Source: Stegostoma tigrinum (taxonomy: Eukaryota). From it: a DNA stretch of 64,000 bases. Both the position numbers and the translations under genes were made by a program. The notes beneath the pieces were generated by a model. It worked only from the letters and a program-made list of their open reading frames with translations. It had not been told where the DNA came from and searched no databases. The stretch spans positions 29,169,247-29,233,246 of the forward strand of contig NC_081385.1 of assembly GCF_030684315.1 (NCBI RefSeq), written 5' to 3'. Positions 11,586 through 57,048 of the stretch are shown here, piece by piece; the first letter of the stretch is position 1, and every line of letters begins with the position of its first letter.

Positions 11586-11683
11586 AACAAAAACAGAAGT
11601 TGCTGGGAAAGCTCAGCAGGCCTGGTAGCATCTGTGAAGGAAAAGACAGTCAGCGTTTCGGGTCCGGTCACTGTTGCTCAGAC
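11586..11683 (-). mobile_element. PLE terminal-repeat mini-insert (family C) with decayed hammerhead
   Basis: Minus strand reads TCTGAGCAACAGTGACCGGACCCGAAACGCTGAC...CAGATGCTACCAGGCCTGCTGAG. 12-bp TSD CCCTTGGGAAGG at 11574-11585 and 11684-11695. Confidence 0.8.
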
Positions 11684-11714
11684 CCCTTGGGAAGGTCAGC
11701 TAACAGTCTTCTCT

Positions 11715-12115
11715 TAGTGGCAACCTCTTTCCTCAGTAGCATTGGTTTTGGATTGAGGCCCACTTCAGGACAGCTAGTCTAAGCTGATGTCCCAGTGCAG
11801 TACTGATGGAGGGGTTCTTAAACAGAGGCTTTCTTCCTGCTTTGCTGGATGTAAAAGAACCTGCGCTATTTCTTTGAGGATAGTCTGAGGAGATCTTAAT
11901 GACTCCTGATTAATATTTAATCTTCAAACAAATTACGAACACAGATTATCTAGTCATTATTGTATTGTTGTTTGTGAGAGCCTGTTGTAAGAAATTGGCT
12001 GCCTCATGTCCTATATTGCACCACCCAGTACTTCAAAAGTTAGTGCTTTGGCATTTACGCTTTCCTGATCTTCTTATAGTCAGGAAAGGCACAAAATAAA
12101 CAGACCGTCTTTTTT
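11715..12115 (+). mobile_element. Old Deu-domain SINE (SacSINE1/AmnSINE1-like)
   Basis: TCTAAGCTGATGTCCCAGTGCAGTACTGATGGAG...GGATGTAAAAGA...AATATTTA resembles the Deu core. Related decayed copies lie near 545-700, 24490-24850, 54380-54700 (-), 57160-57490 (-), 60330-60650 and 61840-62850 (split). Confidence 0.65.
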
Positions 12116-12117
12116 CA

Positions 12118-12625
12118 GTCACAGAGTCTGAGAGATGTACAGCATGGAAACAGACCCTTTGGTCTACATTGTCCATACCAACCAGATATCCTAAATTAAT
12201 CTAGTCCTGTTTACCAGCATTTGGCCATATGCCTCTAAGTCCTCCTATTCATGTACTCATCCAGATGCCTTTTAAATATTGTTACTGAACCAGTCTCCTC
12301 CACTTCCTCTGGCAGCTCATTCCATGCACCTACCAACCTCTGTGTGAAAAAGCTGTCTCTTCAGTCCCTTTTAAATCTCTCACTTCTCATCTTAACCCTA
12401 TGTCCTCTAGTTTTGGACTCTCCTATCCTGGGAAAAGTACCTTGGTAATTCACCCTATCCATGCCACTCATGGTTTTAAGAGTCTCTATAAGGTCACCCC
12501 TCAGCCTCCGATGGTCCAGGAAAAATAGCCCCAGCCTATTCAGCCTCTCCCTGTAGCTCCAACTCTCCAACCTGCAAACATTCCTGTACATGTTTTCTAA
12601 ATCCTTTCAAGTTTCACAACATCTT
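12118..12625 (-). mobile_element. CR1 LINE 3' fragment
   Basis: ORF 12591-12361 SYRERLNRLGLF...RLRGDLIE, plus a typical CR1 3' UTR. Confidence 0.85.
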
Positions 12626-14074
12626 TTTTCTTTTTACCCTGAACAATATTCAATTGCAAAACTTCCACGCATTTATTGAAAGCTTCATTTTTTATCACTG
12701 TCTGCTCTCTCTTATAGTCACTCCCTTTCTGTGTAAAGTGAAATACAAATTTATACTTCTGATTTTCTTAAAATAGTTCTGTAAACTCTCTCAATTAAAC
12801 TGGCAATAGAATAGAAGTTAGGGCCATCTCGCAACTGTGCTAGTTCATTTGTGGCATGAATAAATAATGGAGCCTACCCCATTTACTGAGTTTTGTTTTA
12901 TTCACAGCCACAACCCATTGTCGGTTTCCTTAACATAAACCACCAAGCGCCCATTATCAAATCCCGACATTCCAAATGAAACACATCACAGCAAGTCCGA
13001 CAATGATCCAAAAACAACTGCAAAAATTACATGTCAAACAAGGCTCCAGCCATTTGAAATAAATGGGAGCGAGTCAGTAAATTAGGTCTTTTTCCTCCAG
13101 CTCTTATTTCCCTGCAGCTTTGGAAAATTATTTAATATTATTCTTCTGACTCGTTTCAGAGATCCCCATGAAAAGGTATGGAACAAACTCTTAAACAACG
13201 GATGGAATCCAAACTTAATATGAGCACTTTGTCTCAAGAAATCACTTTAAAAGGACAGGCTGGAAGGAGTAAATGCCCAGCTAAGTGTTGTTGGTTTCTA
13301 GGGCAGACGTGTGGTTTGATAAAATAAGTAACTAAACAGATAGAATAACATGTCATATTTATTCAGAGAAACTAGGCATTCCTTTCTTTTACTAAGTTCC
13401 TAAGGTGAACATGAATTGATTTCTAAACTCTTCAGTAACATATTGCTGTCAGTTTCTAATATCTAAATTGTCAATCATGTAACAATGGCCTGGAATGATG
13501 GCAAGTAGCTGATTTAACTACAGTATGTCAACCACACTGTAATTTCCAAAATTTTGAAAATATTTTAACTATCAGACATCTTATCGAGCAAACATCAGGA
13601 TAACCTCCACACTTCTGTTGTTTTCAGAAGTACAGACTAGGAGGAGGGAGGAGTATAAATGGGTCATCAATTTTTTAAACATCTATTGGCCACAACTTTC
13701 AGGATAATTAGAGCAGATCATTTCGCCCTTGGATCTGTCCTCCATTAGCTGAGCTATTTTTGTCTTCCTTCACTCTTTAACATCCTTCCTTTATAGAAGT
13801 AGTGTTAGATTTTTGACATAATTGTATCATGTATGTGTTTCCTTATTTTGTTTGCCACTTTTCCTCTGTATCTTTATGTTATTCCTTAATTCTTGCATAA
13901 TTCCTTTTTGTGCCTTCAATTCAGTTCCATTAGTCTTCCTGTCTTTCATTTCCTTGATGTCTCTCACATAATACTGAATACCAAGATGGGGACAAAACAT
14001 CCTCTCTCACGTCTCACTTCATGGAAATCTCTGCATCTGTCCAAATGAATCTTTCTGTATGTTCCCACGCCTCT

Positions 14075-14096
14075 TTCTCTCTCTCTCTCTCTCTCT
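14075..14096. repeat. (CT)n microsatellite
   Basis: Run of about 11 TC units. Confidence 0.9.
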
Positions 14097-14346
14097 TTCC
14101 TAGCAGTCATTTCCCTGGCACTGTTTTCTGACAGCCAAAGTTAAAGACAATCAAGGAGGTTTGGAAGCAGCCTGGTCTGGTCAGCATCTAGACTGAAAGA
14201 GTAAGAGGGAACTGGACAGGAGGAAGGCTAGACTGAAGGAGGTATTAAGGAATTAGCTCTCCACCTAACCTTCTTGGTGGAGACCTGGTCCTAACCAATG
14301 TGAAGGCGGAATGTTAGTTCCACAGAATGAAAATAAACACTTACAT

Positions 14347-14557
14347 CAATCTGAGATAACACGGTGTGAAGCTGGATGAACACAGCAAGCCAAGTAGCAT
14401 CAGAGGAGCAGGAAAGTTTGATGTTTCCAGACGGGACCCTTCTTCAGAAGAAAGTTTCCTGCTCCTCTGATGCTGCTTGGCCTGTTGTGTTCATCCACCT
14501 TCACACTGTGTTATCTCAGATTCTCCAGCATCAGCAGTTCCTACTATCTCTGTAACT
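14347..14557. mobile_element. Fold-back PLE terminal-repeat insert (family B)
   Basis: Arms of about 65 bp (14348-14415 and 14456-14522) are inverted, with an antisense decayed hammerhead between them. 9-bp TSD CACTTACAT at 14338-14346 and 14558-14566. Confidence 0.85.
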
Positions 14558-14583
14558 CACTTACATACTTTCTGTGATTTATT

Positions 14584-14803
14584 GGGGGATCAGTTAGATC
14601 AGTTGGTTGGACAGCTGGTTTAGGACATAGAATGATAACAACAGCATAGGTTTAATTCCCACAATATCTGAGGTTACCATGAAGGACTTGCCTTCTCACC
14701 TACCTCCCTTGCATAAGGCATGGTGACCCTCAGCTTAAACCACCACCAGCAGTCTCTCTCAAGAGTCAGTAGTCCTATGGCTTGGTAAGACTATGGTACT
14801 TTA
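14584..14803 (+). mobile_element. tRNA-derived SINE (family not assigned)
   Basis: A-box-like TTAGATCAGTTGG and B-box-like GGTTTAATTCC, body GGTGACCCTCAGCTTAAACCACCACCAG. Confidence 0.6.
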
Positions 14804-15731
14804 ATGTGGTTTTTGACATTCCTTCAGAGGATGTGGGCATCACTGGCTGGGCAGCATTTGTTGCCTGTCCCTAGTTGCCCTGGAGAAGGAGGTGGTGAGC
14901 TTCCTTCTTGAACCACTTACAGTCAACCAGCTAGGGGTTGATCCACAATACCTTTAGGGAGGGAATTCCAAGTCAGGATGGTGAGAAACTTAGAGGGGAA
15001 CTTGCAGGTGGTGATTGTATCTGTGTATTTACTGCCCTTGTCCTTTGAGATGGAAGTGGTTGTGGGTTTGGTATCTACAACATTAATTGTACACATGCAA
15101 ATAGAAGCAGTGTGGCTGATCCAGGGTATCTTGATTGTACACAATCACAAAACAATTCTATCATATGATAAGATTAATAACAGGGAGCTGTGGTAGTAGC
15201 ATAGAATTGGAAATACCAATGTTTGGTTTGCTTTGCAGTCACTTGTCTGTTGGCATCTGCAACCCTCTTTCATAACAAGGTACGCAATTCAGAATTCTGG
15301 CCTGTTCAAAGGATCATCAACTCAAAAGCAATCACATCAGGATAGAGATGTCAAATGACAGGAGTGAACAGAGGACAGAAGTAATCCAATTTTTCTCAGA
15401 CATGCAAAAATTAAGGCTGATGGCCCACGCTTTTCCAATGCTCCAAGATTGTCATAGAGTTTCCAGGAACGAACGTTCAAACTTCTGCTTTGAAAACTCG
15501 GCAGAAAAATCAGAGCAGTAGCAAAAAAGAACTTTGCTATTTCAGTTACTTTTAACATGCAAAAATTGCCCTCTGTTATTAGTGACTTGTATATTCCACA
15601 GCCATGAAGTTGATTAATGCTGTCATAATGTACATGAGCTTGTTAAGTTATTCTTATTTTTAATGCAAATATATTGATGCACTGCATATTTTCTACATAG
15701 GAATGACATTACACAGACGTGAAGGGTATGA

Positions 15732-15908
15732 CAGAACATAGAACATAGAAAAGTACAGCACAGTACAGGCCCTTTGGCCCACAAGGTTGTGCCGTGGAAT
15801 AATCCTAATCCAAAAATAAAATAACCTAATCTACATTCCCTTCAATTCACTGCTGTCCATGTGCATGTCCAGCAGTCGCTTAAATGTCACTAATGGCTCT
15901 GCTTCCAA
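15732..15908 (-). mobile_element. CR1 3'-end fragment
   Basis: (AGAACAT)n tail and ACAGCACAGTACAGGCCCTTTGGCCC terminal motif. Confidence 0.8.
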
Positions 15909-16365
15909 GAAGGGAATGTTTGTACAGTGGCACATTACAGAGAGCAGGAGATGGTAGCAAAGTCACTGCAGTAATGATGCAGATACGCAGGCTTATCATC
16001 CAAAAGCAGGAGCTTAATTGCCATGATAACTGATGCGACTTTCAATTCAGTTAATAAATATAGAGAAAATTGCTAAGTTTCATTAATAATAATTTAGACA
16101 CTGTCAAAGCCTATTTGGTTCAATAATGCCCTTCAGGGAAGGAGATCTGTGGTCCTTATCAATTCTGTTCTCCAGATCCACAACAGTGTGGTTGATTCCT
16201 ACCTGCCCTCAGAAGCCACTTATTTGTATCAAGTTACTACAGCAGAAGGCACTGTGGATGGATCTCGACCACAGGATCTGCAACTGTTCAAGGACATGAC
16301 TCAACTACCTCTTTTAGGGATAGAATCACTGATATTTACTTTGCAAGACTGATTTTTAAAAGTGT

Positions 16366-16508
16366 GATCAGAGATAATGGGAACTGCGGATGCTGGAGAA
16401 TCCAGGATAACAAAGTGTGGAGCTGGATGAACACAGCAGGCCAAGCAGCATCTTAGGAGCATAAAAGCTGAAGTTTCGGGCCTATACTCTTCTAAGATGC
16501 TGCTTGCC
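16366..16508 (-). mobile_element. Fold-back PLE terminal-repeat insert (family A)
   Basis: Reverse complement of about 3835-3957 followed by a short sense arm (CTAAGATGCTGCTTGCCCTG). 17-bp TSD CTGATTTTTAAAAGTGT at 16349-16365 and 16509-16525. Confidence 0.88.
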
Positions 16509-18149
16509 CTGATTTTTAAAAGTGTTCCGTAGACTTAAGAAACTACATCTGTAACATGCTCAAAGTACTTGAGTATATGAGCTGTAAAACTAATTATTAG
16601 AGAACTGCATACTTAAAACATTGTCAAAACAATATACACAGCCTTCTAGACAAATTTCATTTATTATAATAAATGGGCAGCATTTTGATTTGAAGGGAAA
16701 CTATCACCATATCAATAAGTGTTGCTGCAGTAAATTTGTTTGCCTTTTTCACTTCTGTTCACAGGCATTGCAAGTAACGGTAACTAATAGTCTTTTGAAT
16801 GGAATGTGAAAGTCGTAAATAATGCAGTAAATCTGAGGTCACGTCATGTGTAAGGAGCTAAGTGATTTACAGAGACAGGATTATGTGTATTGGTGCACGG
16901 AGACTGTTTAGATAGTAACAGATGGCTTGTTGGTTGGAAGTGAGAACAATATACTTCCCTTAGGAAGCAAAAAATTGCTGCTTGTAAAGAGAATTCTGAA
17001 AATGGTGGTTGAATTAATCAATCTGAATTTAGCCACAGCAAGTGGCTTGCAAGTTGTAGTTTCGAACTTGCATCCCCTCGATACTGAATGCACTCAACAA
17101 GTATTGGATATGTGCTTGAAGGCTGGCCTGTAGGCATTCTCCAGTCTCAATGGACACAGTCACTCAACTGAATTCCAATGAGCCACTTTGAAGAGCCGAG
17201 GCGTATGGAGAGACAGAGACGGAGTTGCAATAATTATATTTGCTACATTACCTTTAAACCTAGGATTAACTCAGCCAGGTAGCAAACACAAATGGTGCAA
17301 GATTCAACAGTGAACATTTCTCCAAATTCCAAGGCCTGGATTTCGTCGGGCCACATCCCTCCATTTAAAAGTCAGGATGGATCCAGATGGCTGCCTCCTA
17401 TAATTTGATGTTGACAGCAGCAACAAATACTTTAAGGCAAAACCTCTATCCCTATCTCAAAGGAATGTCCTGCCCTAGTGAATTGCTGGCTAATCAGACA
17501 GTCATCACTTCTGTAATCGCAGCAGGGCCAACCAGCAATGGTGGCCACTGCTGGGACTTCAGGCCCACCCACAATACAGAGGAGCCAAAGTATTCTGGGA
17601 TTAAGGGACTCAATGAAGTGGGCAGGGGGAAATGAGGAAAGGTTGGTTTAATAAGCTGGCATTAGAGATAAAGTGAGGAATGACCCTAATGGAGAGGAAC
17701 TTATGATGAGCACAACAGGCCCAAAGGAATTTACTTCACATGTATCTGTCTAGCCCACATGGCATGAGTCTGCCCCCTTGCCACAGGTCAAGTACCAGTG
17801 TGGTGTGATGAAGCACTTAAATAGCTCTTAACTGGTCATGTAAATATCTCCATAAGCCCAACAATGGATGAAATACCTGCATAGAGGCAAATATCCCATC
17901 ACCTAGTCATCCTTTATTTACACATGTACAGCACATGGACTCTGACCAGCTACCTCATGCCAGTCCCTACAGTGAGGACAGCCTCTGTGGATCCTGTTTA
18001 TATTGGTTGGCCAGAGCTCCCTAATTGGTCTAGATCGACAACACCAGTTAGGAATGTCCTAATCAACAAGGCCAACCTGGCCAACCTCATTCCAATCACT
18101 GTTGTGCGTAAGCTGCCCACGCCTCTTCTGATCTTGATTAAAGGAATGA

Positions 18150-18335
18150 CTGCTAGTTAGTCTTAACAAGAAGAGGCTCTTGTCGTTACAAGTGTGGCTT
18201 ATTACATGATAGCAACTGGGTATAAGTTATATTAGTTTGCCAAGCCATCTGGAGACATCGATGGCAGGTCTGCCCACTTCGAGACCTGACATCATCAGAC
18301 TGGGTGGAATTTAATTCAGTGTCCAATATTAACCC
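18150..18335. repeat. Interspersed repeat shared with 36585-36790 (unclassified)
   Basis: CTTAACAAGAAGAGG(C/A)TCTTGTC...TATAAGTTATATTAGT...TTTAATTCAGTGTCCAA recurs collinearly at 36592-36787. Confidence 0.7.
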
Positions 18336-23572: not shown

Positions 23573-23689
23573 AGTAAAGTGTGAAGCTGGATGAACACAG
23601 CAGGCCAAGCAGCATCTCAGGAGCACAAAACTTGACGTTTCGGGCCTAGACCCTTCATCAGAGAGCATCTGCAGTTCCCATTATCTCTG
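23573..23689. mobile_element. Inverted (fold-back type) PLE terminal-repeat insert (family A) with an intact hammerhead core on the minus strand
   Basis: 23573-23663 is antisense to 3824-3915, then the sense 3' tail AGCATCTGCAGTTCCCATTATCTCTG follows. 14-bp TSD ATAGAATCACTGAT at 23559-23572 and 23690-23703. Confidence 0.9.
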
Positions 23690-31341: not shown

Positions 31342-33850
31342 GAGGGATTCTTACCATGCGGTCTGGTGTGCTTTCTCATCCGATCTTACCATACCCACCT
31401 CCATGATTCCCTACCTTGCCCCTGTGATGCCTCTCATATCCAATTTCTGCCCCATCTTATCATGTGCCATTTCCAGAATGGCTTGCCACTGCGGGTATTT
31501 GCCAAAACACTGGCAACTCTTGCACCACTTTGAAGCTACCTTTACTTCAGAAATGGTCAAAAATGGCATCTGGACATTTTGGAGAAGGGAAAGACGGCAT
31601 TGCAGTTCTCTGACAGAGGCCTGCAGGCCCTGGAGGACAGAGTGGTCCAGAACAGGTCACTGTCCCCAGTGACCATGCCACCAATCCTGCCAGCCTGGGT
31701 CAGTGCCATCTCCAGGTGCAGTGGAATGGGCAGCAATGCAGAAAGAAGGTCAATAATCTTCTCCAGTCTGCCAGGGTGAGTCTCTCCTCGCTGCTACATC
31801 ATGCTCACTACATCCCTGTTACTGCAGCCACACCTCCCTTTAAAAGCCCTATACTCGATGTTTCCTGCAGCAAAGGCTCATGCTCTGCCACCATCATTAA
31901 TGCCTGTAACACCCTCTAATCTGCTCTCGTTCTGCGCCCCCATCTCCCTCTGAGGCAATGCCCTCTGTGTTGCCTCCTCAAACCCTTTGGTAAACTTCAC
32001 CAACTTTACCTCAGATGTACCAACATTTACAGCCATGCTACCAACTCATTTACCCTTTTTGCTCATCTCAGGAGAAGACAGCCTATAAGAGGGCAGAGAG
32101 AATCCTTATGGGAGGGCCTCCATGTCCTCACCCCCTATAAGGAAGGAATCCTGCCCTTGGAACAGAAACCTGGGAATGCTCCTGTGGGGTTGCCAAGACA
32201 AGAGGTTAAGTACCACTGTTCATTCCATTGCAACTTCCACATTAATCCTGCTGCTACTCTCAATCATTGTACATGACTACTAATGAGTGATAGTAGGAAC
32301 TGCTGATGCTGGAGTCAGGGATAACACAGTGCGGAGCTGGAGGAACCCAGCAGGCCAGGCAGCATCAGAGGAACAGGAAAGCTGATGTTTTGGATCGGGA
32401 TCCTTCTTCAGAAAATGACTCCTAATGGCTTCTAATCACTGGCTGCAACGCTTTCTCTCTCTTTGGTCTTGCAGGTTGCCTACTCAATACCTAAGCAGGG
32501 AAATGCCCAACTGCCCCAGAAGACAAGAGTATGGAGACATCAGGAGAAGCATTGTAAAGGCCACTATCTGCACCCCACTCGCTCAGGTACTGACAACCCA
32601 GGGACAGTAGGAATGTAGCTAGACAGTGTGGATACAGGAGTGGGTCCTGCACTGCTGCCAATCAGGGACTTCACCTAAATGCGCTGGGCAGTGCAGCAGC
32701 AGCTACAATTGCCTTCATTGCCTCAGAAGCTGGACAAGTGCAGTAAATCTTGTGGCCATCTGGCCAGCTTCATGGAGAGGTTGACAGCTGCCGCGGAGAG
32801 CTGGGTGGCTTCAGGAGCTGCTGGTGTGCTCCCACAAGTGGCACACCATCACTAAATCCATTGATCCTCGGGTCTGAGGACATGGTGTAGGTGTGGTCAC
32901 ACCCTGGGCCTTTGGCACTGGCTGCTCAGGACACTGCAGAGCTGGTTAAGCCCTCCACCTCCACCCTACCTACCCACCTCCAACCTGTGGAAATTTAAAC
33001 CATTGTATAGGATGACCCAAAGGGCTAAACGTGCTGATGATATTCAACAGCTGCATGACCTTAAATGAGTCCTGAGAACATTCCTACACGCACTGAAGCC
33101 GGCACAACCAACATGTTTTTCGATGGCTGTTTTATCTGTGCCTGGCTGGTTGTTGCACAGTATAAGAGAGAGAGGTTTGTTCCAAGCTGCTGGATTTCAC
33201 CTCGAACTGAGATGGCAAACAGTGCCAGGAACAACCTCAGTCTCCATACCAGCCATTGATCGGGGGGTCCCTGACGGGCAGAAGGGTGTGAGGCATATTG
33301 CTCTTTTCCTCTCTTCTTCATTCTTTTTATTTACTTAATAAATGTTCCTTTGATTTTTCATCTTTTATTATTCCTCAACAAATGTTCATATGTAAGCAAA
33401 TTGCTGTTGTCGAGCCTTCTCTTAACTCCATTTAACCGAATCTGAAAACAACCGTTTGCATACACTCAGCCATTGAGAGTCGTCACCTCAGGCAAGAATA
33501 CCCTCAATACATCTAGCCCATCGCAACACAAGTATGTCTGGGGTCAGTCTACAAACCTCCATTGCCAACAGACTCTGCTGCTGAGCAAGCTTCCTCCACC
33601 CCAGCTGGAGGAGTAGGGAGTACACCGAGATGCAGTTGGAGGGGGGTGGTGGGGGGAGGTGGGTATAGAAGAAAACACATTCAATACATTTCAATGACTC
33701 AGGTGAAAATGGTATATTTATCACTCTCAGTTTCTGCATAAATGTTTCTGACATTAACTTTCATATGTTTGTGAGTCACTCCATGTAAGCATTAAACACA
33801 TTTTCATACCATCTCACTGCAGGTCACGGTTTCGCCGACAGCGGTTTGCA
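31342..33850 (+). mobile_element. PIF/Harbinger DNA transposon relic with a spliced Myb/SANT-like gene
   Basis: KGKTALQFSDRGLQALEDRV and WNGQQCRKKVNNLLQSAR, donor GTGAGT at 31776, acceptor CAG at 32069-32071, then EKTAYKRAERILMGGP. This is typical of Harbinger Myb/SANT proteins. The nuclease gene is only faintly suggested on the minus strand near 33450-33800, and the boundaries are approximate. Confidence 0.6.
32286..32414 (-). mobile_element. Solo PLE terminal-repeat insert (family B)
   Basis: Antisense to 10525-10650 and starts at TTCTGAAGAAGG. 13-bp TSD ATGACT(A/C)CTAATG at 32273-32285 and 32415-32427. Confidence 0.85.
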
Positions 33851-34361: not shown

Positions 34362-34955
34362 ATATATATCATATGAGGCAGCACAAAGGAACTACGCAGA
34401 GCAGAGGAAAATCACCTGTACAGTGTATTCAAAAAGAATGGGTACCCTATGAACACAGTCCGCCGATTTCTCAGCAACAAACCCAAACAAACAGACAAAA
34501 CGGGCTCAGAAACCATAACCACTCTCCCCTACATCAAAGACATTTCCGAAATGACTGCCAGACTACTCAGAGCACCCCCCCCTCAAACCCCTGCATCCAA
34601 CACTCAGTACCAGGTTCAATGGTACCAAGTGTGGGGGGGGGGGTCCGAGTAGTCTGGCAGTCATTTCAGAAATGTCTTTGATGTAGGGGAGAGTTGTTAT
34701 GGTTTCTGAACAAACACATTGACTTGGAGCCAATCTACCATCCCCTGAGAAAAAGAACAGAAAATGACATCACCAACCCAAGGAAACTTAACCAGATAAA
34801 TAGAAAGTGGGACATAACACCAGCGCTTCGTCGGAGGCTCACTGATGATGTTACCTAGAATGGTGACAAAACGTCTGAAAACTAACCTTCCAGCTCAGCG
34901 AGGAAACTCACATCCAGAACCTCAACCTGAACTACAAATCTTCTCAAAACTTGCT
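34362..34955 (+). mobile_element. Rearranged Penelope/Poseidon-like element (family D) with an internal inverted repeat and hammerhead
   Basis: EENHLYSVFKKNGYPMNTVRRF...TLPYIKDISEMTARLLR, a PLE RT-thumb/linker region. Inverted arms at about 34506-34570 and 34643-34708. 13-bp TSD GGCCATATATCTC at 34349-34361 and 34956-34968. Confidence 0.85.
34839..34878 (+). ncRNA. Minimal hammerhead ribozyme, family D, with a mutated G12
   Basis: UCA-CUGAUGA(34842-34848)-U-GUUACC-UAGAAU-GGUGAC-AAAAC-GUC(34873-34875)-UGA. Stem I is UCA/UGA and stem II is 6 bp. GAAAC is AAAAC at 34868. Confidence 0.75.
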
Positions 34956-41899: not shown

Positions 41900-43560
41900 A
41901 AAGATAAAACATTTCCAAACAGATATGCATTTGTCCAAAGGCATTATTTGTCAATCAATAATTATAGAAGCAGATGAAACAAAGTTTACAAAACTAATGC
42001 TCAAAGTTCTGAGTAATGCTTTGAAAATTCATCTTGATGTCATGGTCATATAGCCCTTTATACATTGTTCTCTCATAAAAACTGAAAGAACTGTAGATGC
42101 TGTAAATCAGGAACAAAAGCAGAAGTTGCTGGAAAAGCTCAGCAGGTCTGGCAGCATCTGTGAAGAAAAAGTCAATGTTAACGTTTTGGGTCAGATGACC
42201 CTTAGAACTTCTGAGGAAGGGTCACCGAGTTAACACCAATGTTAACTCTGATGTTTTCTTCACAGATGCTGCCAGACCTGCTGAGCCTTTCCAGAAAATT
42301 AGTTTTTCTATACATTGTTATCTGTTGAATTAAATTGACAACTTGGTTGTATGCTGCTGTTGCTGTCACTCAACATCACCATCCAATCAAAATTGTTAGG
42401 GTGTTCTTCCTCATTCCCTTCGAGAATGATTGGAGTGTCGTCCAAAGGTCTGAACTGGCTTCTGTTCTTTCACAATGTAGCATCCGCATCAGCAAGGACT
42501 TTGCATGAACTAGGCTGGTTGCATATTTCAGAAACCATTAATTTTTGTACCACCATCTCTCATACTCTGTCCAGTGCACAGGTTTGATCATTCTTGACCC
42601 ACTTGCTTTCATTTTGTACTGACTCCGAAGAAAATTGCCTTGTATCTTGGAATAGTTAGACAATCAGTTGCATGCAAGTTTGTCTGCATTTACCTTCTGT
42701 GCTAGGGGTGGTAATCCTTTGCTATTGTTGTTGCATGAAAATTCAGCAATGTGAAAATCTTGCACTGTTGCTTGAAAGTTAACAATAATTGATTTGCTTT
42801 TATATACCATATGCTCTACTAGACTATTTGAATGTGGTTAATAGTGTAACAATGTAATATTGGCCAATTGCCATTTAGTGTGCTAGTGTGGTATGATTCT
42901 GTGCACTGAGATCTGTGCATACCGATAGTCTTGCTATTGATGGACCATTGGTAATTACCAGACAGCAGATTTTGGGAAGCCAACCTGAACTTGCCTATTG
43001 GTACTGTATTGTGATTCTGCCAATGCACAGAACTGATGATTCTTTACATGTTATGAAACAGTCACTTGTAGGGTGTATCAGAGTGCCATGTGCTGAGGAA
43101 CGAGTCTTTCAAAATGAAAATCGGTAATACATTGGCAATAGCTCAACTTTAGCTTTTAGTGTGTATCGTCCTGCCTTTTCAGGATATGATCATAATGTTT
43201 CTAAAAGCTTCTGACTGCCTTGAACCATCCACATGGTTTGTGAGGTTAACAACACGGAAAGATTGATCATCTTATGAAATATGCCTTTTGTTTAGTTCAC
43301 TTTGAATTGATGCCACGTGCTTTACAGATAACAAGGGTCTCCAATAAAGCTTTTGGGTAGGTGCGACAAACTGCAACTGCTATAGACTTTGTTGGTTTGG
43401 TGCACTTTGCTCAACCTAGCATTAAGTTGCAGCTAAAGCATGTAATATTTTGGCATACCACTATGGCTTCATATTTCTGTCCATGACCAAATAATACATC
43501 AATAGTATATTTCTTTCCCAAAAATCATCCCCATGGTTATTTTTAATTCTAATTCTCACA
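41900..43560 (-). mobile_element. Ty3/Gypsy pol relic (integrase region)
   Basis: Minus strand ITNGP (42955-42941) and PHSNSLVEHMV (42837-42806) resemble the integrase SDNGP and PQSNGLAERMV motifs. Boundaries are approximate. Confidence 0.55.
42070..42308. mobile_element. Fold-back PLE terminal-repeat insert (family C)
   Basis: Inverted arms meet at ATGACCCTTAGAAC/TTCTGAGGAAGGGTCACC, the hammerhead start. 11-bp TSD TATACATTGTT at 42059-42069 and 42309-42319. Confidence 0.85.
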
Positions 43561-46490: not shown

Positions 46491-47509
46491 TATATGTTGC
46501 CCTTATTAAAAAATATCAGGTGTATCAATCCTTTGAAATCCATTCCATTGTTGATAGTTCTTCAAGAGAAAAGGGAAAATAAGGGTTTTTTTGAGTAGTC
46601 TACACCTCTGAGTTTGAAGAACATATTAAATAATTAATTTGATTGCATAAAAATTGTGTAAAACTTCTGTTTAATTTGATATTTTGAATAATTCAAAACA
46701 TCTTGATGAAAAGGTCTAAATAATAAGGAATAGCTCAGTTCAGCCATTTTCATCCCAGGTGGCAGCATTCAGCAACATTCACTTTTGGCATGTATTTCAA
46801 CAGATCATTTTCGAGCAACGTGAATCTTGTAACATTAAGTCTCAGCAAAACTGTACAGTCTTTGCTGGGTTTGCGATGTAAACAATGGTCCTTGGAGGGT
46901 TAAGGGATGGGGGAAGACACTCGTAATGTCACTTTAATGCACAGTAACATTTTTTTGCTTCCTTTCTCTTGAGTCAAATGCTGCCCCCTGCCCTGGGGTC
47001 GTGAGAAAAACAGTGGGTAAGTTTCTCAACAGCAACACAGCTCACGTCTGAACAAAAAGCAAACATACCAGTGTCAAGCAGAAACTTTCCATAATCTGTC
47101 ACAAGTATGTACTGGAGACATACACAAGCTGATCTGTCCCTAACTCCAGACGTCCCAGAAGCTGTCATACTGGTCAAAGGACCTGAGGGTTATCTATAAA
47201 TGTAGTCAAAATAGCAAACAAATGAGGAAAAGCTCCAGCACATATGGTAAAAGCATATTGCAGGGAGGAAGGGACCAGTGAAAAAAAATCTTGTGGAGGC
47301 AGGGGGTTGTTTGATGTGCTAAATGAGTATTTTGCCACTGTCTTCACCAAAATTGCCAACATAGATGTAAATGAGGTGGGAGAGATAATGTCAGATAAGA
47401 CAGGAAATAGAGAAAGAGGAGGCATTTCAACATTAGCTATCTTCAAAGTAGTGAAGCCACTTGGTACAAATTGGATGTATCTTAGATTACTGAGGGAAGT
47501 AAAAGTTAA

Positions 47510-48014
47510 CAGAAACAGAAGTTGCTGGAAGCTCAGTGGACCTGGTAGCATCTAGATACTACATACTAGAACTGTACAGTGCAGGAACATACCCTTTGGC
47601 CCACAATGTTGTGCCAAACGTGATGCCAAATTAAACTAATCCTTTCTGCCTGCTCTTGGTCTGTATCCCTCCATTCCTTGCATGAAGAAAAAAATCAGAG
47701 TTAACTGATTCAGAATTGGGTTTGCGATGTAAACACTGGTCCTTGGAGGGTTAATTGACGGGGGAAGATACTCATAATGTCAGTTTCATGTACTTTTGCT
47801 GAGACTTAATGTTACAATATTCACTTTGCTTGAAAATGATTTGTTGAAATACTTGCCAGAAGTGAACGTTGCTGATTCAGAACTCAGAAAGGTCACCAGA
47901 CCCAAAACGTTAACTCTGGTTTTTTTTCTTGACAGATGCTGCCAGACCTGCTGAGCATCCAGCAATTTCTGTTTTTGATCCTGATTGCAGCATTCGTAGT
48001 TCTTTCGGTTTTTA
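47510..48014. mobile_element. Fold-back PLE insert (family C) holding captured local DNA and a nested CR1 3' end (about 47553-47683)
   Basis: Antisense arm at 47510-47552 plus 47684-47704 and sense arm at about 47883-48014. 15-bp TSD GGAA(G/A)TAAAAGTTAA at 47495-47509 and 48015-48029. Confidence 0.8.
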
Positions 48015-48283
48015 GGAAATAAAAGTTAAAATTGCAGGTGGTCTCGTCACTGTATTCTAGAGGACTAAATGATTACTAAAATCACATTCTTGTTAGAAAA
48101 GAGAAGACAGGGATCCTTGTAACTACAGTCCAGTCGGTTTAATACAAAGTTAGAGGAAATATTCAGAAGCAATAATCTGGAAAAGTAAGTCATTTGGAAA
48201 GGTATAACATCATTGGAAAAGAATGTCAACACGGTTCAATTAACAAGAAAAATTAGTGACCAGTTTAATTGACTTCTACAATA

Positions 48284-48640
48284 GGCAGCATGGTGGCTCA
48301 GTGATTAGCACTGCTGCCTCACAGTGCCTGGGGCCTGGGTTTGATTCCAGCCTCAGGTGACTGTCTGTGTGGAGTTTACACTTTCTCCCTGTGTCTGCGA
48401 AGGTTTCCTCTGGGTGCTCTGGTTTCTTCTCACTGACCAAAGATGTGTAGGTTTGGTGGATTGGCCATGCTAAATTGCCCATAGTGTCCAGGGGATGAAC
48501 AAACTAGACAGATTAGCCATGGGAAATGCAGGGTTACAGAGATGGGGTGAGGGTGGGTGGAATTCTTTTGGAAGGGTTAGTATGGACTCAATGGGCCAAA
48601 TAGCCTACTTCCACACTGTGGGGATTTGATCATTCTATGA
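48284..48640 (+). mobile_element. HE1-type V-SINE
   Basis: Head, V-domain and tail are collinear with 4655-4966. Confidence 0.9.
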
Positions 48641-51124
48641 ATCAACAGAGTGGATTTCTGAGCGATGTAATATTTATGCTGTATGTGTGGACTTTCACCA
48701 GGTATTTGAAACTTAAGTCTATGAAATTGACACCATACTGGCAGTGTGAACAGAGACATAGAGTGTAGCGACGAAGAGTTGATTTTCAAAATGGTGGCCA
48801 GTGGGCAGTGGTGCTTCCCATAAGTTGGTATTGGGGCCACTCCTGTTTTTGATATTTATTAATTGCCTGGTCTTGGGTAATCATGACATAATTTCAGTGT
48901 GTTGATGATGTGAAATTCAGTAATGAAGTAAACAGAGTGAAATATATTAAGTTTGGAAGTGCAGTTTCATGAGGGTATAAAGAGACTGGCAAAGTAGGCA
49001 GACAAATGCTGAACAAAATTTTACTTAAATATAATGTGATACATTTTTGTAGGAAGAATGAGGAGAGTACTATAAACTAAATGCTACAATTTTAAAGAGG
49101 GTGCAGGAACCGAACGAACCTAGAACTAAGTGCAAGCAAGACTTTGATGGTGGCGGCATAAATTCAGAAAGGGTTTAAAATGCCTGGAACCCTTAGCTTC
49201 TTTAGAGAAAAATTCGATACAAAAACAAGGAAATTACATGAACACTTTGTAAAACACTATTGGAACTCATGCAGTTGAAGCATTGTGTTCGGTTTTCGAA
49301 CAATAAGGCCTTCAGGAAGGTGCAGAAGAGACGTAGTGGTACTGAGGATGAGAGAAATCAGTTCTATGGAGAGACTGGAGAAGTTGGTGTTGTTCTCTTG
49401 AGACAGACAAGGTGAATGGAAGATTCGATAAAAGGTGTTCAAGCACAGAGTAAATAACAAGAAACTGTTTCAATGTCAGATGGGTTGTCAAACACAGGAA
49501 ATACAAACTTAAGTCGAATGGCACAAGAACGAGAAATGACCTAAGGATTCTTTTCTCTAAGTAAGCAGCAAGTTGTTGTGATTAAACATGCACTGCTGTC
49601 CAGGGCAGTAGAAGCAGATCCAATAGTAGTTTTCAAAACTGAATTGGATAAATTCTTGAAGAGAAAAATAAATTGCTAGGCAGTTAGCAAAGGATTTGCA
49701 ACAATAGTGCATTTTACCAAAGTGCTGGACCAAACACAGTGGAACCTGCTTCTATAATAAGGAGAGTAAAATAAAAATAGAAGATACAAGTGGTATGGTC
49801 CTGGATGACCACATCCAATACCTTTGGCATTTTCCACCTGTGTCTCTTAGGCTTAGCGGTATACTCAATAGAATGCTAATCCAGAGACCTAGGCTCAAAT
49901 CCCACCAATTTTTAATGCAGTTCACTGCCATCAATCCTCCTTCAACATTTTTTTTTGTGTTAGGTTTGTCAAGTGATTATTGATAGAGGATGCACCACTG
50001 TAGTGTATCCACAGAACAGCCTTAGTTCTTATATGCCAATAAGAAATGTTATTGCATAATAGCAATAAGAACAACAATATTTAGTCAGGCATAATGACCG
50101 TGACCTTGGAGAGGTGGTACAGATATAACTGCTCTGTTCAAAAACCAGAGTAAAACTCCTTGTCTCCGACCACCAACTGTATGTGCCAACTCCAACAAGA
50201 CAGAATATAATCTTCACCCCTTGACATCCAATGGCAGCACCAATGCCGAATCCCACTGCTAATATCCTGGGGGTTATCATTGATGGGAAACTGAACTGAA
50301 CCAAACTTACAAATACAGTAGTTACAAGAGCAGGTCTGAGGCTGGGAATTCTGCAATGAGTAACAATTAATGTTTTAAAATCATTGGCTGTGGTAGGAAT
50401 TGATGCACTTTTAAAAACAAGCTGCTGAAACTCATTGTGTACCATGCTCATACTGCTGCTTGGTTCATGAAGTGGGGAAGCTGTTTGTAAATGGCCTGGT
50501 ATCAAGAATCTATACAGGCAGTTTTGGCCAGTAATAAGTAGCTGATTGGTTAGTGCAGTATGACCAGTCATGGACATCAAAGATCATCAGTCTAACAATG
50601 ATTTTGATTGTTTTTTAGGTAGCAGAATAGCTTGTGGTGTGGATGTTGCAGTGTGGATGTTTGATCCACTGAAAGGCACATTTTGTGTACTTATCTCTGC
50701 ATTAAAAATACCTGATTCTGAAAGAAAACTGCCTTTTTCTCTTGACCAGTTGCTGTAAACTATTGCCTTTAGCCAGTAACTCAGAGACTTTGCAGTTGAT
50801 GTACCAATTGTCCTATGCATCATGCTAGGAAGTGAAGGATCCTGGAGAAGAGACTGAAGAACAGAAAGTCCTGGTAAATCAAAAGGATCATTTTAGTAAA
50901 GCCTGTGAACTAATTCTATTTAGCCATGATTTCAGTATCTTATTCACTCCACCCATAAAAGCAATGTTTTATTTTTGTTTGCCTGCATCTGTTTTCATGA
51001 GTGTTTCATGGTTTAAAAGGGTTTTGAGTTTTAATTAATCAAGCTGTATGTTGGTAGCTCATAGCTGTTTATTCATGATAAGAATTTACTTATTTACAAT
51101 AAATAGTAACTCTTCTTCCTCTTT

Positions 51125-52110
51125 GCACCATGATCACTAATGAATTTTTACAACCTAAGCTGATTTGCTCCCTTTGGAACTTTTAGCTGGTCTCCAGATA
51201 CTTGTGACTGAATTTCTGTCCTGTGTGTAGTTGTATGAGTTCTCTAACTGCTTGCTTGTGTTGTACCTTTTTCATTTTCCTTTGTCTTTGAGCCACAGTG
51301 GCTAGGGCTTGAATCTCATGAATGGTTATGTTGCTGAGATCTGTGCATTTTGGTAATCCTGCCCCTGCTGGAACACTAGCATCTACCAGGTAGAAGATGT
51401 TGGAAATCCAGCATCATGTTTATGGGGTACCACAGTGTGACTGTGCCACTGTATGGATTTGAGGATACACGTTATGCTGTGTGAGATGTTCCTTTCTAGG
51501 TTTTATCATGGTCTGCCACCTTTTGGTTTACCTGTCTTTAGGTGAGTAGAAGTAATACAGTGGCATCAGTTCCTATATCAATTTTGGATTTCTGGTGGTG
51601 TTAACCTGCCTTCTGGAGAGAAACGATACTGATGGTTATAAAACCTCTGATCATCATTTCACTGACACGATATGTTAAACTGTTAATGTAAAAGGCCTGG
51701 TCATCCTCCAGTTTGCTTTATAGTTTGGTGGCCATTTGTTGATATCATTCAGATGACTGTCAGCATTATGGTATTGCACCACCTTGGTGATCACCAGGGT
51801 CTTGTTCCAGGACCTGGCTCGGCTTTTGAAACCAGACAGTTGAAATCCTTTTAGCTGCTGATTCCACTTTTAACCAATAAGAATTATTTCAACTACTGTA
51901 ACGTCACTTTTACATCGGGAACTTCACTGTCTTTATTTTTGTGAAAAAAAAACTGAAGAGCTTCTAGTTGTCATACCTTGAACTTTAAGCAGAAAGAAGG
52001 TAAGTCTGCCTGCAGGCTACTTAGGTTGGAGATTTGTATACACATAAACCGAATGTAGTTTAGTCTTCGTTGAGGATTCTAATACAAACTGTTTGTGAAA
52101 CTGACTACCA
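51125..52110 (-). mobile_element. Ty3/Gypsy gag-protease relic
   Basis: Minus strand 51585-51553 encodes KIDIGTDATVL, similar to the aspartic protease KIDTGAxxTV motif. A PBS-like TGGTAGTCAG lies near 52110-52101. Confidence 0.5.
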
Positions 52111-53711
52111 TGATGTGAGATGATGCGACAGTCTTATGTGATACTTGTGTCAGCTCATGAGACATGGGTCATGTAGTACAAAAGATTTAAATTAGCTTTT
52201 ATTATACCACCTAACATATACATATGTACACTATAATCACAGGCACTTGCACAACTGGGCTCAAGCTAAGCAATTCAGATACATTGTAGCATTCTTTCCT
52301 CAGTGCTTCATGCTGCAAAGGGGCTCAGCAAGATGGAGCCTGAGACCTTTAAACCATTAGTTCAAATGTCCTGACATGGTGATGACATCATGAGGGTGCC
52401 CTTTAAAGATATCTTCCCGATCTGCTGCTTTGAAGAGACTAGCATGAGAGTCTAGCAGAAAAAGCAAAGTCATGAATCATTAAAGATATAAAAACCCCAG
52501 AACTCAGTAAGTTAGCCACAATTTCACAGGGAAGAGTTATGAAAACTGCAGCTGGACAATTTTTAAAAAATGTGTAGAGTGAAGTGCATGTTGGATTTAA
52601 TTATAAAAAGAGGGAAAGATATCACTTTTACCTGGAAGGAAAACTTAATTGACTCTATGATTACAACCCTTTATGCTGTTAACTATGTTATATAAATGCA
52701 GATTTTTATTGTTAGTGGGGGTACTCAATGACTCCTTTGCATCAATGCCACAGATTGCAAAGGAAGCTTAACACTGTAAGTTGCACACAGCTAATACTGT
52801 GCCGTTAGCTACCTTCCTCAGAAAGCACATATTGCAAAATCCACCCTTACAGAAGATCCATATGCACCCTAGAGCAAATCAAGCTGCGAGATAAACCAAA
52901 TTATCAACAAACGTATGGACCTAGTTTATTGTTGGACTCTATACAGTCAGTCAATTACATTCAAATCCAAATCAATTACACTCCAAACCAGCCTTCGTTC
53001 TATTGACTCTGTTTTCTCAAGGCAGTGGGAAGAATAGACGACAAGTGTAATCTCAGATCCCTCCCACCTTGGTCATATTCTCTTCCTCTCTCTTCCCTTG
53101 GGCAAAAGATACAAAACTTTGAAAACAAGTGCCAAGAGATTTGAGAACAGCTTCTTCCCGCTGTTATAGAGTCATAGGGCTATACAGCATGGAAACAGAC
53201 TTTTTGGTCCAACTCATCTATGCCGACCTGATATCCTAATGAAATCTAATTCCATTTGCCAGCTTTTGGCCCATATCCCTCTAAACCCTTCCTATTCATA
53301 CACCCATCCAGATGCCTTTTAAATGTTGTAACTGTACCAGCCTCCATCACCTCCTCTGGCAGCTCATTCCATACACACACCACCCTCTGTGTGAAAAAAA
53401 TTCCCTTGTGTCCCTTTAAGTCTTTCCCCTCTCACTTTAAACCTATGCCTCTAATTTTGGAGACTCCACGCTGGGACAAAGACTTTGGCCACCCTCCAGT
53501 CTCCGATGCTCCAGGGGAAAAAAAAATCCCAGCCTATTCAGCCTCCTCTATAGCTCAAACCCTCCAACTCTGGCAAATTTCTTGTAAATCTTTACTGAAC
53601 TCTTTCATGTTTACCAACACTTTTCTGACCTCAGGAAGACCAGTATTCTTTTCGCGGCCTCGCTAACGTCTTGTACAGCTGCAACATGACATCCCAACTC
53701 CTATACTCAAT

Positions 53712-53935
53712 AGAGATAATGGGAACTGCAGATGCTGGAGATTCCAAGATAATAAAATGTGAGGCTGGATGAACACAGCAGGCCAAGCAGCATCTCAGGA
53801 GCACAAAAGCTGACGTTTCGGGCCTAGACCCTTCATCAGAGCTCTGATGAAGGGTCTAGGCCCGAAACGTCAGCTTTTGTGCTCCTGAGATGCTGCTTGG
53901 CCTGCTGTGTTCATCCAGCCTCACATTTTATTATC
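53712..53935. mobile_element. Perfect palindromic PLE terminal-repeat insert (family A)
   Basis: 53748-53841 and 53842-53935 are exact reverse complements with no spacer. TSD TCCTATACTCAATA at 53699-53712 and 53934-53947, with microhomology at the edges. Confidence 0.95.
53842..53873 (+). ncRNA. Minimal hammerhead ribozyme (mirror copy on the minus strand at 53810-53841)
   Basis: CUGAUGA 53844-53850, GAAAC 53864-53868, GUC 53869-53871. Identical to 3824-3855. Confidence 0.85.
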
Positions 53936-55931
53936 CTATACTCAATACACTGACTAACGAAAGCAAGCCTGGCAAACCACCCAGTCTATCTGCAACTTGA
54001 TTTTCAAGAAACTATGCACCTGCACCACGAGACCTCTTTCTTCCACAGTGCTCCCCACGGCCCGACCATTAACTGCTAATAGACTTATGAATGGACTTTT
54101 CATATACTAGAGTTGATCTTTCTCTGCACCTTCTCTGTTGCTGTAACACTATATTCTGCACTTTGTTCTATTATCCAGATTTATATAAGGTGTGGCTGGT
54201 CTGAATAACACACAAAATGATACTTTTCACTGTATCTCAGTACACATGACAATAATAAATCAAACCAAATCAAAAAATAAAAAGGAGAGATTATTTGCAA
54301 AACTCTAGTTGACAACAGAAATTCAATGGTCTTCGCCCGTGTCTCCATTTCTGTTGTTGAGCTGTTGGGGATAATAATCTAATGCCTCCACATTACAAGG
54401 CACATCTTCCATGACCTCAGAATATCCTAAATCACATCAAGTAATTCTAAAACATAATCACTGTTGTGATATAGGAAATGCACTGCCAATTTCTGCACAG
54501 CAGCCTCCCACTAATAAAAATGAAAGGTTTTACTCTGAAACTGGAGTCAATAAATGCTAGTCAGTTCCGCTGTTCTTCATCAAATAGTGGTATGAAACTT
54601 TCATCTACTGAGCCTCTGTGATGTATTGTCCAGAAAACTGCACCTCAAGACATTTCAACACTCCTTCAGCACTGCTTTGAACTGCAGTTCTACATTATGT
54701 GGTTACTCGTGTTTCCAGTTTTCTAACATCTATAATTTATCCCAAAGGAACTCTTACAACATAATATATATTCAACCAAACTGATATATCAGGTCCACTG
54801 CCAGTTTAATATTTGAAAGCTCTTTCTATTGGTCGGAAACAGGAGGTTTTCTGTTTCTAGAATGGTGAAAGCTCATTAATTGTTTTCCAATGATGGAAGT
54901 CAAATAACTGGGGCAGTACCGTTAGAACTGCTTGAGAGCTGAACTCAAAGCATCAGACTGCAATGTATAATAAGATTAACAATGGATGGGGAGTTGTTCT
55001 GAAGATTGGCTGTGTTTTGAATAGTGAAGCCCATTTCATAATAAGATAAATTATATAGAACAGAGGTATTGTGCAAAGACTTGAATTTCCTAGTGTTGTG
55101 CATCATTATTGAGTATCTCCGAAACCATTCTCTTGATTAATATAACTTAGTTAAATAGATTTCTGAACCCAGATGTCCGGAAGGATCAACCCAGCAAAAG
55201 TTACATTTTTCAATCTCACCTCAAAGGCAAGCTCTTGTCTCTCATGATGGGGTGGGGATAAAAAATTAAACTGTTTTGGAAGTTTATCTCATTTGTAGGG
55301 GCAGTTCACCACTGCTTAATCAAGGTGTTTAGTGTTTCACAGTGTAAACAGAGCCCGGCATATACCTTAAAATTTTCTTTGTACTTCATTCCTGGTCACC
55401 ATGAAACACAGCAATATTATTTAAGAGATGAAAATATCTACCAACAGATAATGCTGCATAATATTGCATTTGTTTATTCCTACAATGGCTGCATAGTGAA
55501 ATGGAACTAAAACGTGAAACTCATGAAGAAAAATAGCGTCCATCGATTCTTTGTGAATTCCACCTGCCTCATTCAACTTCTCAGAAGGTTTGCCATCACA
55601 ACTTCAAACCTAAAATTCAAAGTCACTACTTTGGGTTTTTCTTTCCGGTTAAGCCTTAGGGACTCCACTGGTTAATTTTAAAATATCCATAAATGTCATT
55701 TTTGAGCTGGAATTTGACTACAGCAACCGGCGCAAAAATGTTTCCTGCTCCTGGTATCTCTGCTGTAATCGTAAACTCTCAGTGCATTTGTAAATTGAGA
55801 TGCTGAAAGTAAAAAGGCATTTGACCTTCAATAATAGGCACAATTTTTTTAGAAGTGTTTAGCATAAATGAAACAAGTTTCTAGAAGTACATCAACCACC
55901 TCCCGTCATGATTTTAAAGCAATATTCTTAC

Positions 55932-55992
55932 CATTAAGTACAGCCAGTATTGACAGTATTGAAGTCCAGAGTGTCAACTGCGCTGCGTTCAT
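55932..55992 (-). CDS. Probable first coding exon of a secreted or membrane protein gene (signal peptide)
   Basis: Kozak-like ATCACCATGA at 55992. Translates to MNAAQLTLWTSILSILAVLN+G and ends at the donor G|GTAAGA (phase 1). It lies directly downstream of the CpG-rich promoter. The gene is not recognised. Confidence 0.65.
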
Positions 55993-56400
55993 GGTGATTC
56001 CTACAGTTTAATATCCAAAGAGACAAGCAGCTCCGGATTAGTTTCCCTAGAAAGTAATCTCTCGCACGAGAAGCTTGCAAACACACGACCTCAATTAATT
56101 CAGGACACCGACCTGCTGCACGATGCGGTCGTTTAAACCTTCGCCGGCCGGCAGAGACTGTGAACACGCGTGCAGACCATCAGCGATGTGACATCGGGTA
56201 CTGGTCGCCTCAAAGCTCTTGCAAGCACTCTCCAGTCCTTGGGAGTCCCCGGGAGCCGCCTGTCAATCAAAGCCCCTACCTGTCCGGGCAGGAGGCTCCG
56301 CCCCGTCACGCATTGGGGGCCAATCACCACCAGCACTTTGTCTGGAACGGCTTGATTGGCTCACTGCCTGCCAATCAAGCTCACCTGCGGGTTGACTCCA
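55980..56400 (-). promoter_or_regulatory. CpG-island-like promoter with a GC box and multiple CCAAT boxes
   Basis: The only CpG-dense non-repeat stretch in the window. CTCCGCCCC at 56296-56304; CCAAT/ATTGG at 56312-56316, 56320-56324, 56355-56359 and 56371-56375; CGTCA half-CRE at 56304. Confidence 0.75.
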
Positions 56401-56879
56401 CCCCCAACCCCCTGGTGGGTTCAATTCCCACTGAGAAAAAAAACACCTGCAATTACAGTGACAGTTCTCGTTATTTATTGCCATAAAACCAATAAATACA
56501 ATTGCTTAACTTCAGGCATATGAACAGAGTTTCCAAATTATTTGTTATTGTTAGGTTTAACTTTAGCATTTCATTGTTGTGGTGCAGAAGGAGACCATCT
56601 GGCCCAACATACCTGCACCAATTCTATAAGGTACAGTCAATCATCTGCCTTTTCCCTATATCCCTAAACACCATTTCTACCCAAGTAGCCATCCAATGAA
56701 TGCCTTGGTTGAATTTGCTTTTTTTCACATCACTTTAAATCTATGCCCCATCAATCTTTTATTTCAGTGATTTTTACAAATTCTTTCATGTGGTTTGTTT
56801 TTGTAACACGTGTAACGAAAACAAGTTCAAATTCTACGACATCTTCCCAACCCCCTTAAAAACACAACCTGGTATCTAA

Positions 56880-57048
56880 AATAAAATATGAAAATCTGAA
56901 GATGCTGGAAATCTGAAACAAAGATCAAAATTGCTGGAGGGATGCAGCTGGCCTGGCAGCATCTGTGGAGAGAAAGCAGAGACTATGTTTTGGATCAACA
57001 GACGCTGGCAGACATACAGATTTTCTCCAGTAATTTCTATTTTTCTGT
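56880..57048. mobile_element. Old fold-back PLE terminal-repeat insert
   Basis: AGATGCTGGAAATCTGAAACAAA...GGCAGCATCTGTG followed by the inverted CAGACGCTGGCAGAC...CTCCAGTAATTTC. No clear TSD. Confidence 0.6.

Follow-up and report, generated by a model that had tools for sequence, protein, structure and literature searches.

Do the short inserts scattered along a 64,000-nt stretch of the Stegostoma tigrinum genome (NC_081385.1, positions 29,169,247 to 29,233,246; the window) form a mobile family of their own, or do they derive directly from the Penelope-like element (PLE) whose hammerhead-bearing terminal repeat they contain? The original prediction, made from the letters of the window, held that the ribozyme region delimits a short RNA or cDNA unit, mobilised independently and snapping back, as a retrozyme-like non-autonomous system. 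We found that the inserts are a real and mechanistically informative variant of known PLE behaviour, and that a separate snap-back retrozyme family is not supported. The inserts and their relatives (minis) are probably run-off ('strong-stop') cDNAs of autonomous PLEs, copied from an RNA predicted to start at 3822-3824, at the 5' edge of the hammerhead.

Nine inserts and a sharp 5' boundary at the hammerhead

The window contained pieces of CR1-like LINEs (long interspersed nuclear elements) and of PLEs. All nine non-coding inserts were present where the original prediction had placed them, and their sources were three related PLE terminal repeats, by which the families are named: A (3824-3957), B (10525-10651), and C (42209-42308). 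The inserts are listed with arm starts relative to the hammerhead core and with their target site duplications (TSDs).

11586-11683, minus strand: single family-C arm, start at core -1, degenerate core, 12-bp TSD
14347-14557: family-B pair with a 9-bp TSD, its minus arm from core -2 and its tailed plus arm from +31
16366-16508: family-A pair with a 17-bp TSD, its tailed minus arm from +5 and a short remnant of a plus arm from about +38
23573-23689: family-A pair, minus arm from 3822, plus arm of tail only (3929-3956), 14-bp TSD
32286-32414, minus strand: single family-B tailed arm from core -3; its 13-bp TSD has one mismatch
42070-42308: family-C pair with an 11-bp TSD, its tailed minus arm from +6 and its plus arm from -2
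47510-48019: family-C pair split by later foreign pieces, 10-bp TSD
53713-53933 (insert 53712): family-A perfect palindrome, both arms from 3824, 14-bp TSD
56880-57048: decayed family-C-like tailed arm and probable second arm, core lost

As had been predicted, eight of the nine inserts carried TSDs of 9-17 bp (seven exact, that of 32286 with one mismatch), whereas a TSD was looked for at 56880 and none was found. Fold-back was likewise the rule, with seven folded inserts and two single arms (11586 and 32286). In every insert at least one arm started from 4 nt before to about 30 nt after the C of CUGA, which bears out the claim that the inserts begin or turn at the hammerhead. The further claim that the core is usually kept was right for the five inserts with an intact CUGANGA (14347, 23573, 32286, 42070, and 53712) and wrong for 11586, 16366, 47510, and 56880, in which it was degenerate or lost. 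The arms of 53713-53933 were 100% identical to 3824-3953 and 3824-3917, the two arms of the 23573 insert had no sequence in common, and the second arm of 56880 was visible by eye only, BLAST having failed to recover it. The extent given for the 47510 insert was inflated by later foreign sequence: two later insertions at 47554-47875 split the element, and the part at 47717-47875 matched 46769-46942 in two orientations.

The features of the family-A repeat that define the boundary are as follows.

3820-3825, plus strand: the wall, main 5' start of short arms, with peaks at 3822 and 3824; 5' strand of helix I
3824-3855, plus strand: minimal type I hammerhead motif, with CTGATGA at 3826-3832, helix II at 3834-3845, and GAAAC
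3853/3854, plus strand: predicted hammerhead cut, after C3853

Arm breakpoints were collected across the 3.2-Gb genome from six blocks (1.263 Mb) and 30 loci picked by a word blind to the 5' end, giving 128 family-A arms with a repeat core identity of at least 90% and at least 25 core bases aligned. By breakpoint, 62 arms fell upstream of 3815, one at 3815-3819, 27 at 3820-3825, and 38 at 3826-3880, so that short arms (135 nt or less) made up 66 of the sample and long arms 62. The density at 3820-3825 was 4.5 breakpoints per nt versus 0.005-0.06 per nt upstream of 3815; over 3001-3814 it was 0.035-0.06 per nt, placing the wall about 100-fold above the upstream density, with a cliff on its upstream side and a trimmed shoulder downstream. 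An apparent break-free stretch at 3344-3819, seen in the 42 youngest arms, was rejected because 15 of the 128 arms break at 3401-3814. Genome-wide, junctions were counted as an exact 32-mer preceded by three non-native bases, and we found 50 at 3816, 3,417 at 3824, 280 at 3841, 2,314 at 3854, and 1,322 at 3861. As rough shares, with totals scaled from 19-47 local matches, these correspond to about 0.1, 5.9, 0.3, 1.9, and 1.1%, respectively, and native sequence was retained back to 3811 in 19,562 copies. In DNA contigs (two runs of one sample, which inform on DNA ends only), 3825 was the only 5' loose-end site with diverse flanks among the matches listed (257 and 172 contigs), and one run also showed diverse loose ends after 3956. 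Similarly, 26 of 68 family-C arms started at -7 to 0 relative to the C of CUGA, as did 31 of 145 arms of a family-B set that is impure in that it includes older family-A copies (15 rows at -3).

The peak at the ribozyme that the original prediction expected is therefore real. Could it be random 5' truncation, with an alignment artefact where a conserved ribozyme adjoins a variable untranslated region (UTR)? BLAST does drop off nearby in old copies (low-identity classes, with rows at -46). However, the peak persisted in 90-100% identical arms directly abutted by a partner arm or a TSD, and it was present in exact-match counts. Random truncation is thereby refuted for family A, and we give it almost no credence.

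The wall coincides with the edge of the hammerhead, not with its cut site. The core, helix II, and a palindromic helix III loop were all present, with a helix I of 2 bp in family A and 4 bp in family C; the minimal core and the palindromic loop are shared with metazoan PLE hammerheads (PMC4209133). Judged by its letters, the family-A motif fits the minimal PLE hammerheads, which cleave weakly, as dimers (PMC4209133). An Rfam search of the hammerhead returned no matches, and the monomer is predicted to favour another hairpin. Metazoan PLE hammerheads occur mostly as single or close opposite-strand motifs and were interpreted as truncated PLEs; the accessible text mentions the opposite-strand pairs without mapping breakpoints (PMC4209133). 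The predicted cut site at 3854 was a minor and ambiguous peak, 1.75 times the nearby control at 3861. By eye, among the matches listed, 63 of 100 junctions at 3854 were AGCT palindrome joins and 43 of 100 at 3841 were GGCC joins, the former occurring at a roughly estimated nine times the rate of the latter. Run-off at the cut site as the main source was rejected, since non-palindromic 3854 junctions (about 860) were fewer than those at 3861, and the original statement that a simple cleavage product is not the template is upheld in that such a product is not the main one. In the anole element the ribozyme requires protein, and cleavage is dispensable for insertion in vitro (PMC11167929). The idea that the ribozyme region defines the unit is partly right: a short RNA or cDNA unit is likely, and its boundary coincides with a predicted transcription start and not with the cut.

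A fourth PLE family was observed at 34506-34910. It has a tail-to-tail hairpin of ORF (open reading frame) sequence (34506-34709) with an 8-bp flanking repeat, followed closely by a hammerhead at 34842 whose helix II is long, and its fold-back is not ribozyme-anchored.

Paired arms, their 3' ends, and their variants

We further investigated how the two arms of an insertion relate to each other. One arm of a pair was about 37 nt longer at its 3' end, and the sequence concerned is the tail.

3915-3957, plus strand: tail, with short ends at about 3915-3921 and long ends at about 3950-3957

We infer that these short and long 3' ends mark two reverse-transcription start sites. In the 128-arm sample, 34 of 36 pairs combined one short with one long 3' end. 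The 22-nt junction of 53713-53933 (at 53842) was found at 370 genome sites, and at all 15 loci examined one arm ended at 3915-3924 and the other at 3950-3957, the flanks differing between loci and the end positions by a few nt. TSDs of 9-19 bp were present in 31 of 36 pairs and in 18 of 56 single arms. A similar TSD finder run on 60 random intervals per block was positive for 0-2% of them in four blocks, and for 47% and 98% in two repeat-rich blocks. The latter were part of C1:50000001-50200000 (47%) and G000:C5:60000001-60200000 (98%), and the C5 block contained few PLE arms. Head-to-head pairing with kilobase arms was seen in several of 20 long-copy loci. The classes of paired arms were concordant, with 20 short/short, 14 long/long, and only two mixed pairs versus 17.5 mixed pairs expected (p=2e-8).

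These pairs bear on the claim that the cDNA snaps back, that is, that a single cDNA folds at the ribozyme and copies itself into a second arm. Junctions are perfectly palindromic, self-priming has been proposed for rotifer PLEs (PMC3846280), and arm-length concordance would follow from it too. However, in 16 of 37 pairs the tail-less arm extended further 5' than the tailed arm, so neither arm can be a fold-back copy of the other; three tailed arms, including that of 23573, consisted of tail only without any overlap with the partner; and single arms with either type of 3' end occurred. Snap-back could apply to some of the other 21 pairs, and as the general route it is highly improbable. Since the 16 pairs and the tail-only arms are not self-copied cDNA, we infer two head-to-head target-primed cDNAs, with arm length set by the template.

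The same arms bear on whether short masters produce RNA themselves, move in trans, and multiply again as a separate retrozyme-like non-autonomous family. About half of the young arms are short (66 of 128), one junction recurs at 370 sites, an older variant pattern is over-represented among short arms, and PLE-derived non-autonomous elements are known (10.64898/2026.07.22.740005; PMC8557442). Yet the recurrent junction lay on five variant patterns at the 15 loci (arms agreeing in 13), each of which was also found in long copies, and no variant column at 8% or more was private to the minis in the 128-arm sample. End positions varied by a few nt at every one of the 15 loci, as new insertions do. 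Variants were thus shared with long copies across the 128 arms and 15 loci, where an independent lineage was looked for. Long ORF-bearing copies share the architecture, and the minis were neither head-to-tail tandems nor equipped with an upstream box. Mobilisation of the minis as a system of their own, as originally proposed, is on this evidence quite unlikely. Non-LTR (long terminal repeat) retrozymes are head-to-tail tandems of 150-450 bp that give circular RNAs (PMC7229834; 10.64898/2026.07.22.740005). The minis resemble them in being short, non-coding, and PLE-related, and in their type I hammerhead motif and long TSDs; they differ in that their arms, whether head-to-head or single, start at the ribozyme and carry variants common to autonomous copies. 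A head-to-tail hammerhead tandem was found in none of the nine window inserts, and one of the 15 loci had a 41-nt head-to-tail jump. At that locus (L010:1512-1684), 3824-3863 was followed by an extra G and a restart at 3824, which looks like a run-off cDNA switching onto another RNA. Minis were also frequently found adjoining or inside copies of the same PLE (L047:6966-7190, L058:2216-2429, L209:1078-1208, and L247:4570-4688). At L217:845-1575 both arms leapt from the 3' UTR at 3673 into ORF-5'-like sequence, which suggests that both copied a template bearing an internal deletion.

A predicted transcription start and the templates proposed behind it

Where the wall falls relative to the sequence upstream of it suggests what sets the template end.

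3792-3798, plus strand: TATA-like TATTTAT, predicted promoter element, 30-32 nt ahead of the wall

TATTTAT lies 34 nt before CUGA in family A and 34-36 nt before it in five of five long family-B copies, and CATATAAA stands at about -33 from CUGA in three of four long family-C copies. We take both words to be TATA-like, and the TCAGTT at the family-C wall is initiator-like. In three diverged families the wall therefore follows a TATA-like box at a distance of 29-32 nt. Moreover, a G preceded 3824 in 63 of 100 junctions among the matches listed. When palindrome rows were removed (27 at 3824 and 10 at 3816), the G:A ratio by eye, among the matches listed, was 36:9 at 3824 versus 13:17 at 3816 (p=0.0014). 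An extra untemplated G is a signature of a copied cap in L1 and SVA (PMC4859970).

According to the strong-stop reading, transcription would begin at 3822-3824 behind the TATA-like box, and the reverse transcriptase (RT) would start about 95 and about 135 nt downstream on that RNA and run off its 5' end. The GIY-YIG endonuclease (EN) would nick both target strands 9-19 bp apart, and each nick would prime one cDNA, one from about 3917 and one from about 3956, both probably made in a protein dimer on one RNA. The cDNA ends, in many cases trimmed or annealed through microhomology, would then be joined head to head to give the fold-back and the TSD. Long copies would take the same route from templates extending upstream of the start, be they multimeric, read-through, or circular RNAs. 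Since minis start downstream of the TATA-like box and so lack it, they are predicted to be dead ends.

Several observations weigh against this reading. Among 17 full-length copies reaching the upstream repeat, ten passed the wall, one stopped on it, and six stopped downstream of it, so that longer or circular templates must also exist. Of the short arms, 38 of 66 started downstream of 3825 and require trimming or early stops. In the retrieved loci, leaving out those selected by the 53842 junction pattern, the extra-G excess was non-significant (12 of 28 versus 36 of 134, p=0.11). TATTTAT is a non-canonical box, the bases next to it are equally conserved within family A, and Penelope of D. virilis has an internal promoter that is TATA-less (PMC2377424). 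The two arms of a pair agreed at 33 of 48 informative variant sites compared to 16% when shuffled (none of 2000 shuffles was as high); this counts in favour of the reading, but it shows a common subfamily, not a common molecule. Finally, the older variant at 3902 was present in 36 of 66 short arms versus 13 of 62 long arms. This excess could stem from long copies being lost as they age, or from a subfamily making more short RNA, and it leaves some room for a non-autonomous family.

Two other accounts of the wall were weighed against a transcription start. One is a strong pause, in which RT on a long RNA is released just past the hammerhead, for example by a nascent-cDNA hairpin or by a protein on the C-rich tract upstream. 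It requires no promoter, a hairpin that ends at 3826 can be closed by pairing between CUGAUG and CGUCAG, and the upstream tracts of families A and B are C-rich. However, stochastic release should yield many mixed pairs, of which there were two among 36; ten of 17 second-pass cDNAs crossed the site; family C has the same wall without a C-rich tract; and the TATA spacing would be left unexplained. We therefore consider a pause unlikely. The other account makes the wall a 3' splice site and a spliced RNA the template. The intron of D. virilis Penelope ends at the helix I 5' end (PMC4209133), the family-C wall is preceded by CAG and by a word resembling a branch point, and a G before the junction would be expected from exon ends as well. 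Yet an AG is missing at the wall of families A and B, the nearest being about 22 nt upstream, and the base before a family-A arm belongs mostly to the partner arm or the TSD, leaving no space for an upstream exon; splicing is very unlikely.

An extension of the strong-stop reading would have one PLE supply three templates. Capped, uncut RNA would give the minis at 3822-3824, hammerhead-cut linear RNA the smaller AGCT-3854 class, and circles of doubly cut unit RNA the long copies and the seamless tandems, for which the wall has no effect. We regard this scheme as possible and hold it with considerable doubt.

The parent element and what the inserts record

Two ORF-bearing copies in the window represent the parent elements.

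2867-3957, plus strand: young family-A PLE, 5'-truncated, with a 12-bp TSD (2856-2867 / 3958-3969); ORF end (Zn-finger linker, GIY-YIG), 3' UTR, and terminal repeat with tail
9262-10651, plus strand: older ORF-bearing copy of a family-B PLE; TATTTAT spans 10493-10499 and the core lies at 10527

Both are nested in CR1-like LINE copies (1275-4536 and 7099-9261, respectively) that are about 85% alike. Family A is a young autonomous PLE. Its 188-aa endonuclease end showed 100% protein identity in 150 of 150 scored genome matches, a 33-mer of its repeat had 93,311 exact genome matches, and a 29-mer near its ORF start had 606. In a natural copy the open frame runs to 1,077 aa and contains DKG, YIDD, a Cys linker, and YIGET. 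The Neptune/Nematis clade, of which the element is a candidate member, is marked by a Zn-finger-like motif between RT and EN (PMC8557442); the Cys motif of the frame is at residue 810. A GIY-YIG profile match (E=3e-4) fell just under the Pfam cut-off, Pfam gave no match on the long frame, a PDB sequence search gave none, and protein-atlas neighbours of the frame were RT/GIY-YIG proteins (0.96-0.97). The element thus has the single ORF with PLE-type RT and C-terminal GIY-YIG, the partial tandems (pLTR, pseudo-LTR), the inverted 5' copy, the one-sided tail, and the TSD of endonuclease-bearing (EN+) PLEs. In tandem copies (three loci) the tail continues into the ORF, with an ATG about 35 nt past 3956 and a unit of about 3.56 kb, so that the hammerhead and tail stand at the front of the coding unit and at the end of every insertion.

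The insertion pattern is already known as the PLE 'inverted pLTR plus tail'. EN+ PLE insertions are described as a 5'-truncated copy with an adjacent inverted copy, a 30-40 bp tail at one end, and a TSD (PMC8557442; PMC3846280; PMC2377424). Shared with that unit are the head-to-head arms, the one-sided tail of about 37 nt, the 9-19 bp TSDs, the partial tandems, the repeat that runs into the ORF start, and the junction palindromes. Unlike in the accessible descriptions, about half of the arms here belong to a distinct class, no longer than 135 nt and bounded by a sharp 5' wall, and pairs are class-concordant. In the Anolis Poseidon element PAc in vitro, the tail equals the distance between two internal RT start sites, both target strands are extended, the protein is a predicted dimer, and products shorten with the template 5' end (PMC11167929). 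Two adjacent internal RT starts with a hammerhead just upstream of them are shared with PAc, whose ORF starts inside the hammerhead whereas the ATG here follows the tail; in its main text, as far as accessible, the transcription start and a genomic peak of short copies are unmapped (PMC11167929). Literature searches turned up no sharp wall at a predicted transcription start combined with class-concordant pairs, though Repbase entries, subscription papers, and the PAc supplementary figures may bear on this.

Short cDNAs and inversions also arise in other retroelements. Retroviral minus-strand strong-stop DNA is a short run-off cDNA primed near the RNA 5' end, and in L1 twin priming both target nicks prime and give an inversion. 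Unlike either, the short cDNA here would be target-primed and integrate, with both arms copying the same region.

The copying mechanism of PLEs and the role of their hammerhead are still open questions (PMC8557442; PMC11167929). Because family A is young and huge, its breakpoints document intermediates of reverse transcription. They lend support to two in vivo internal start sites and to two classes of template, and yield a prediction of a transcription start to within about three bases. If the three-template scheme is true, the ribozyme would convert a transcript that yields dead-end minis into one able to copy the whole element. Together, our results caution that short hammerhead-bearing repeats, even in the tens of thousands, can be by-products and not a retrozyme family.

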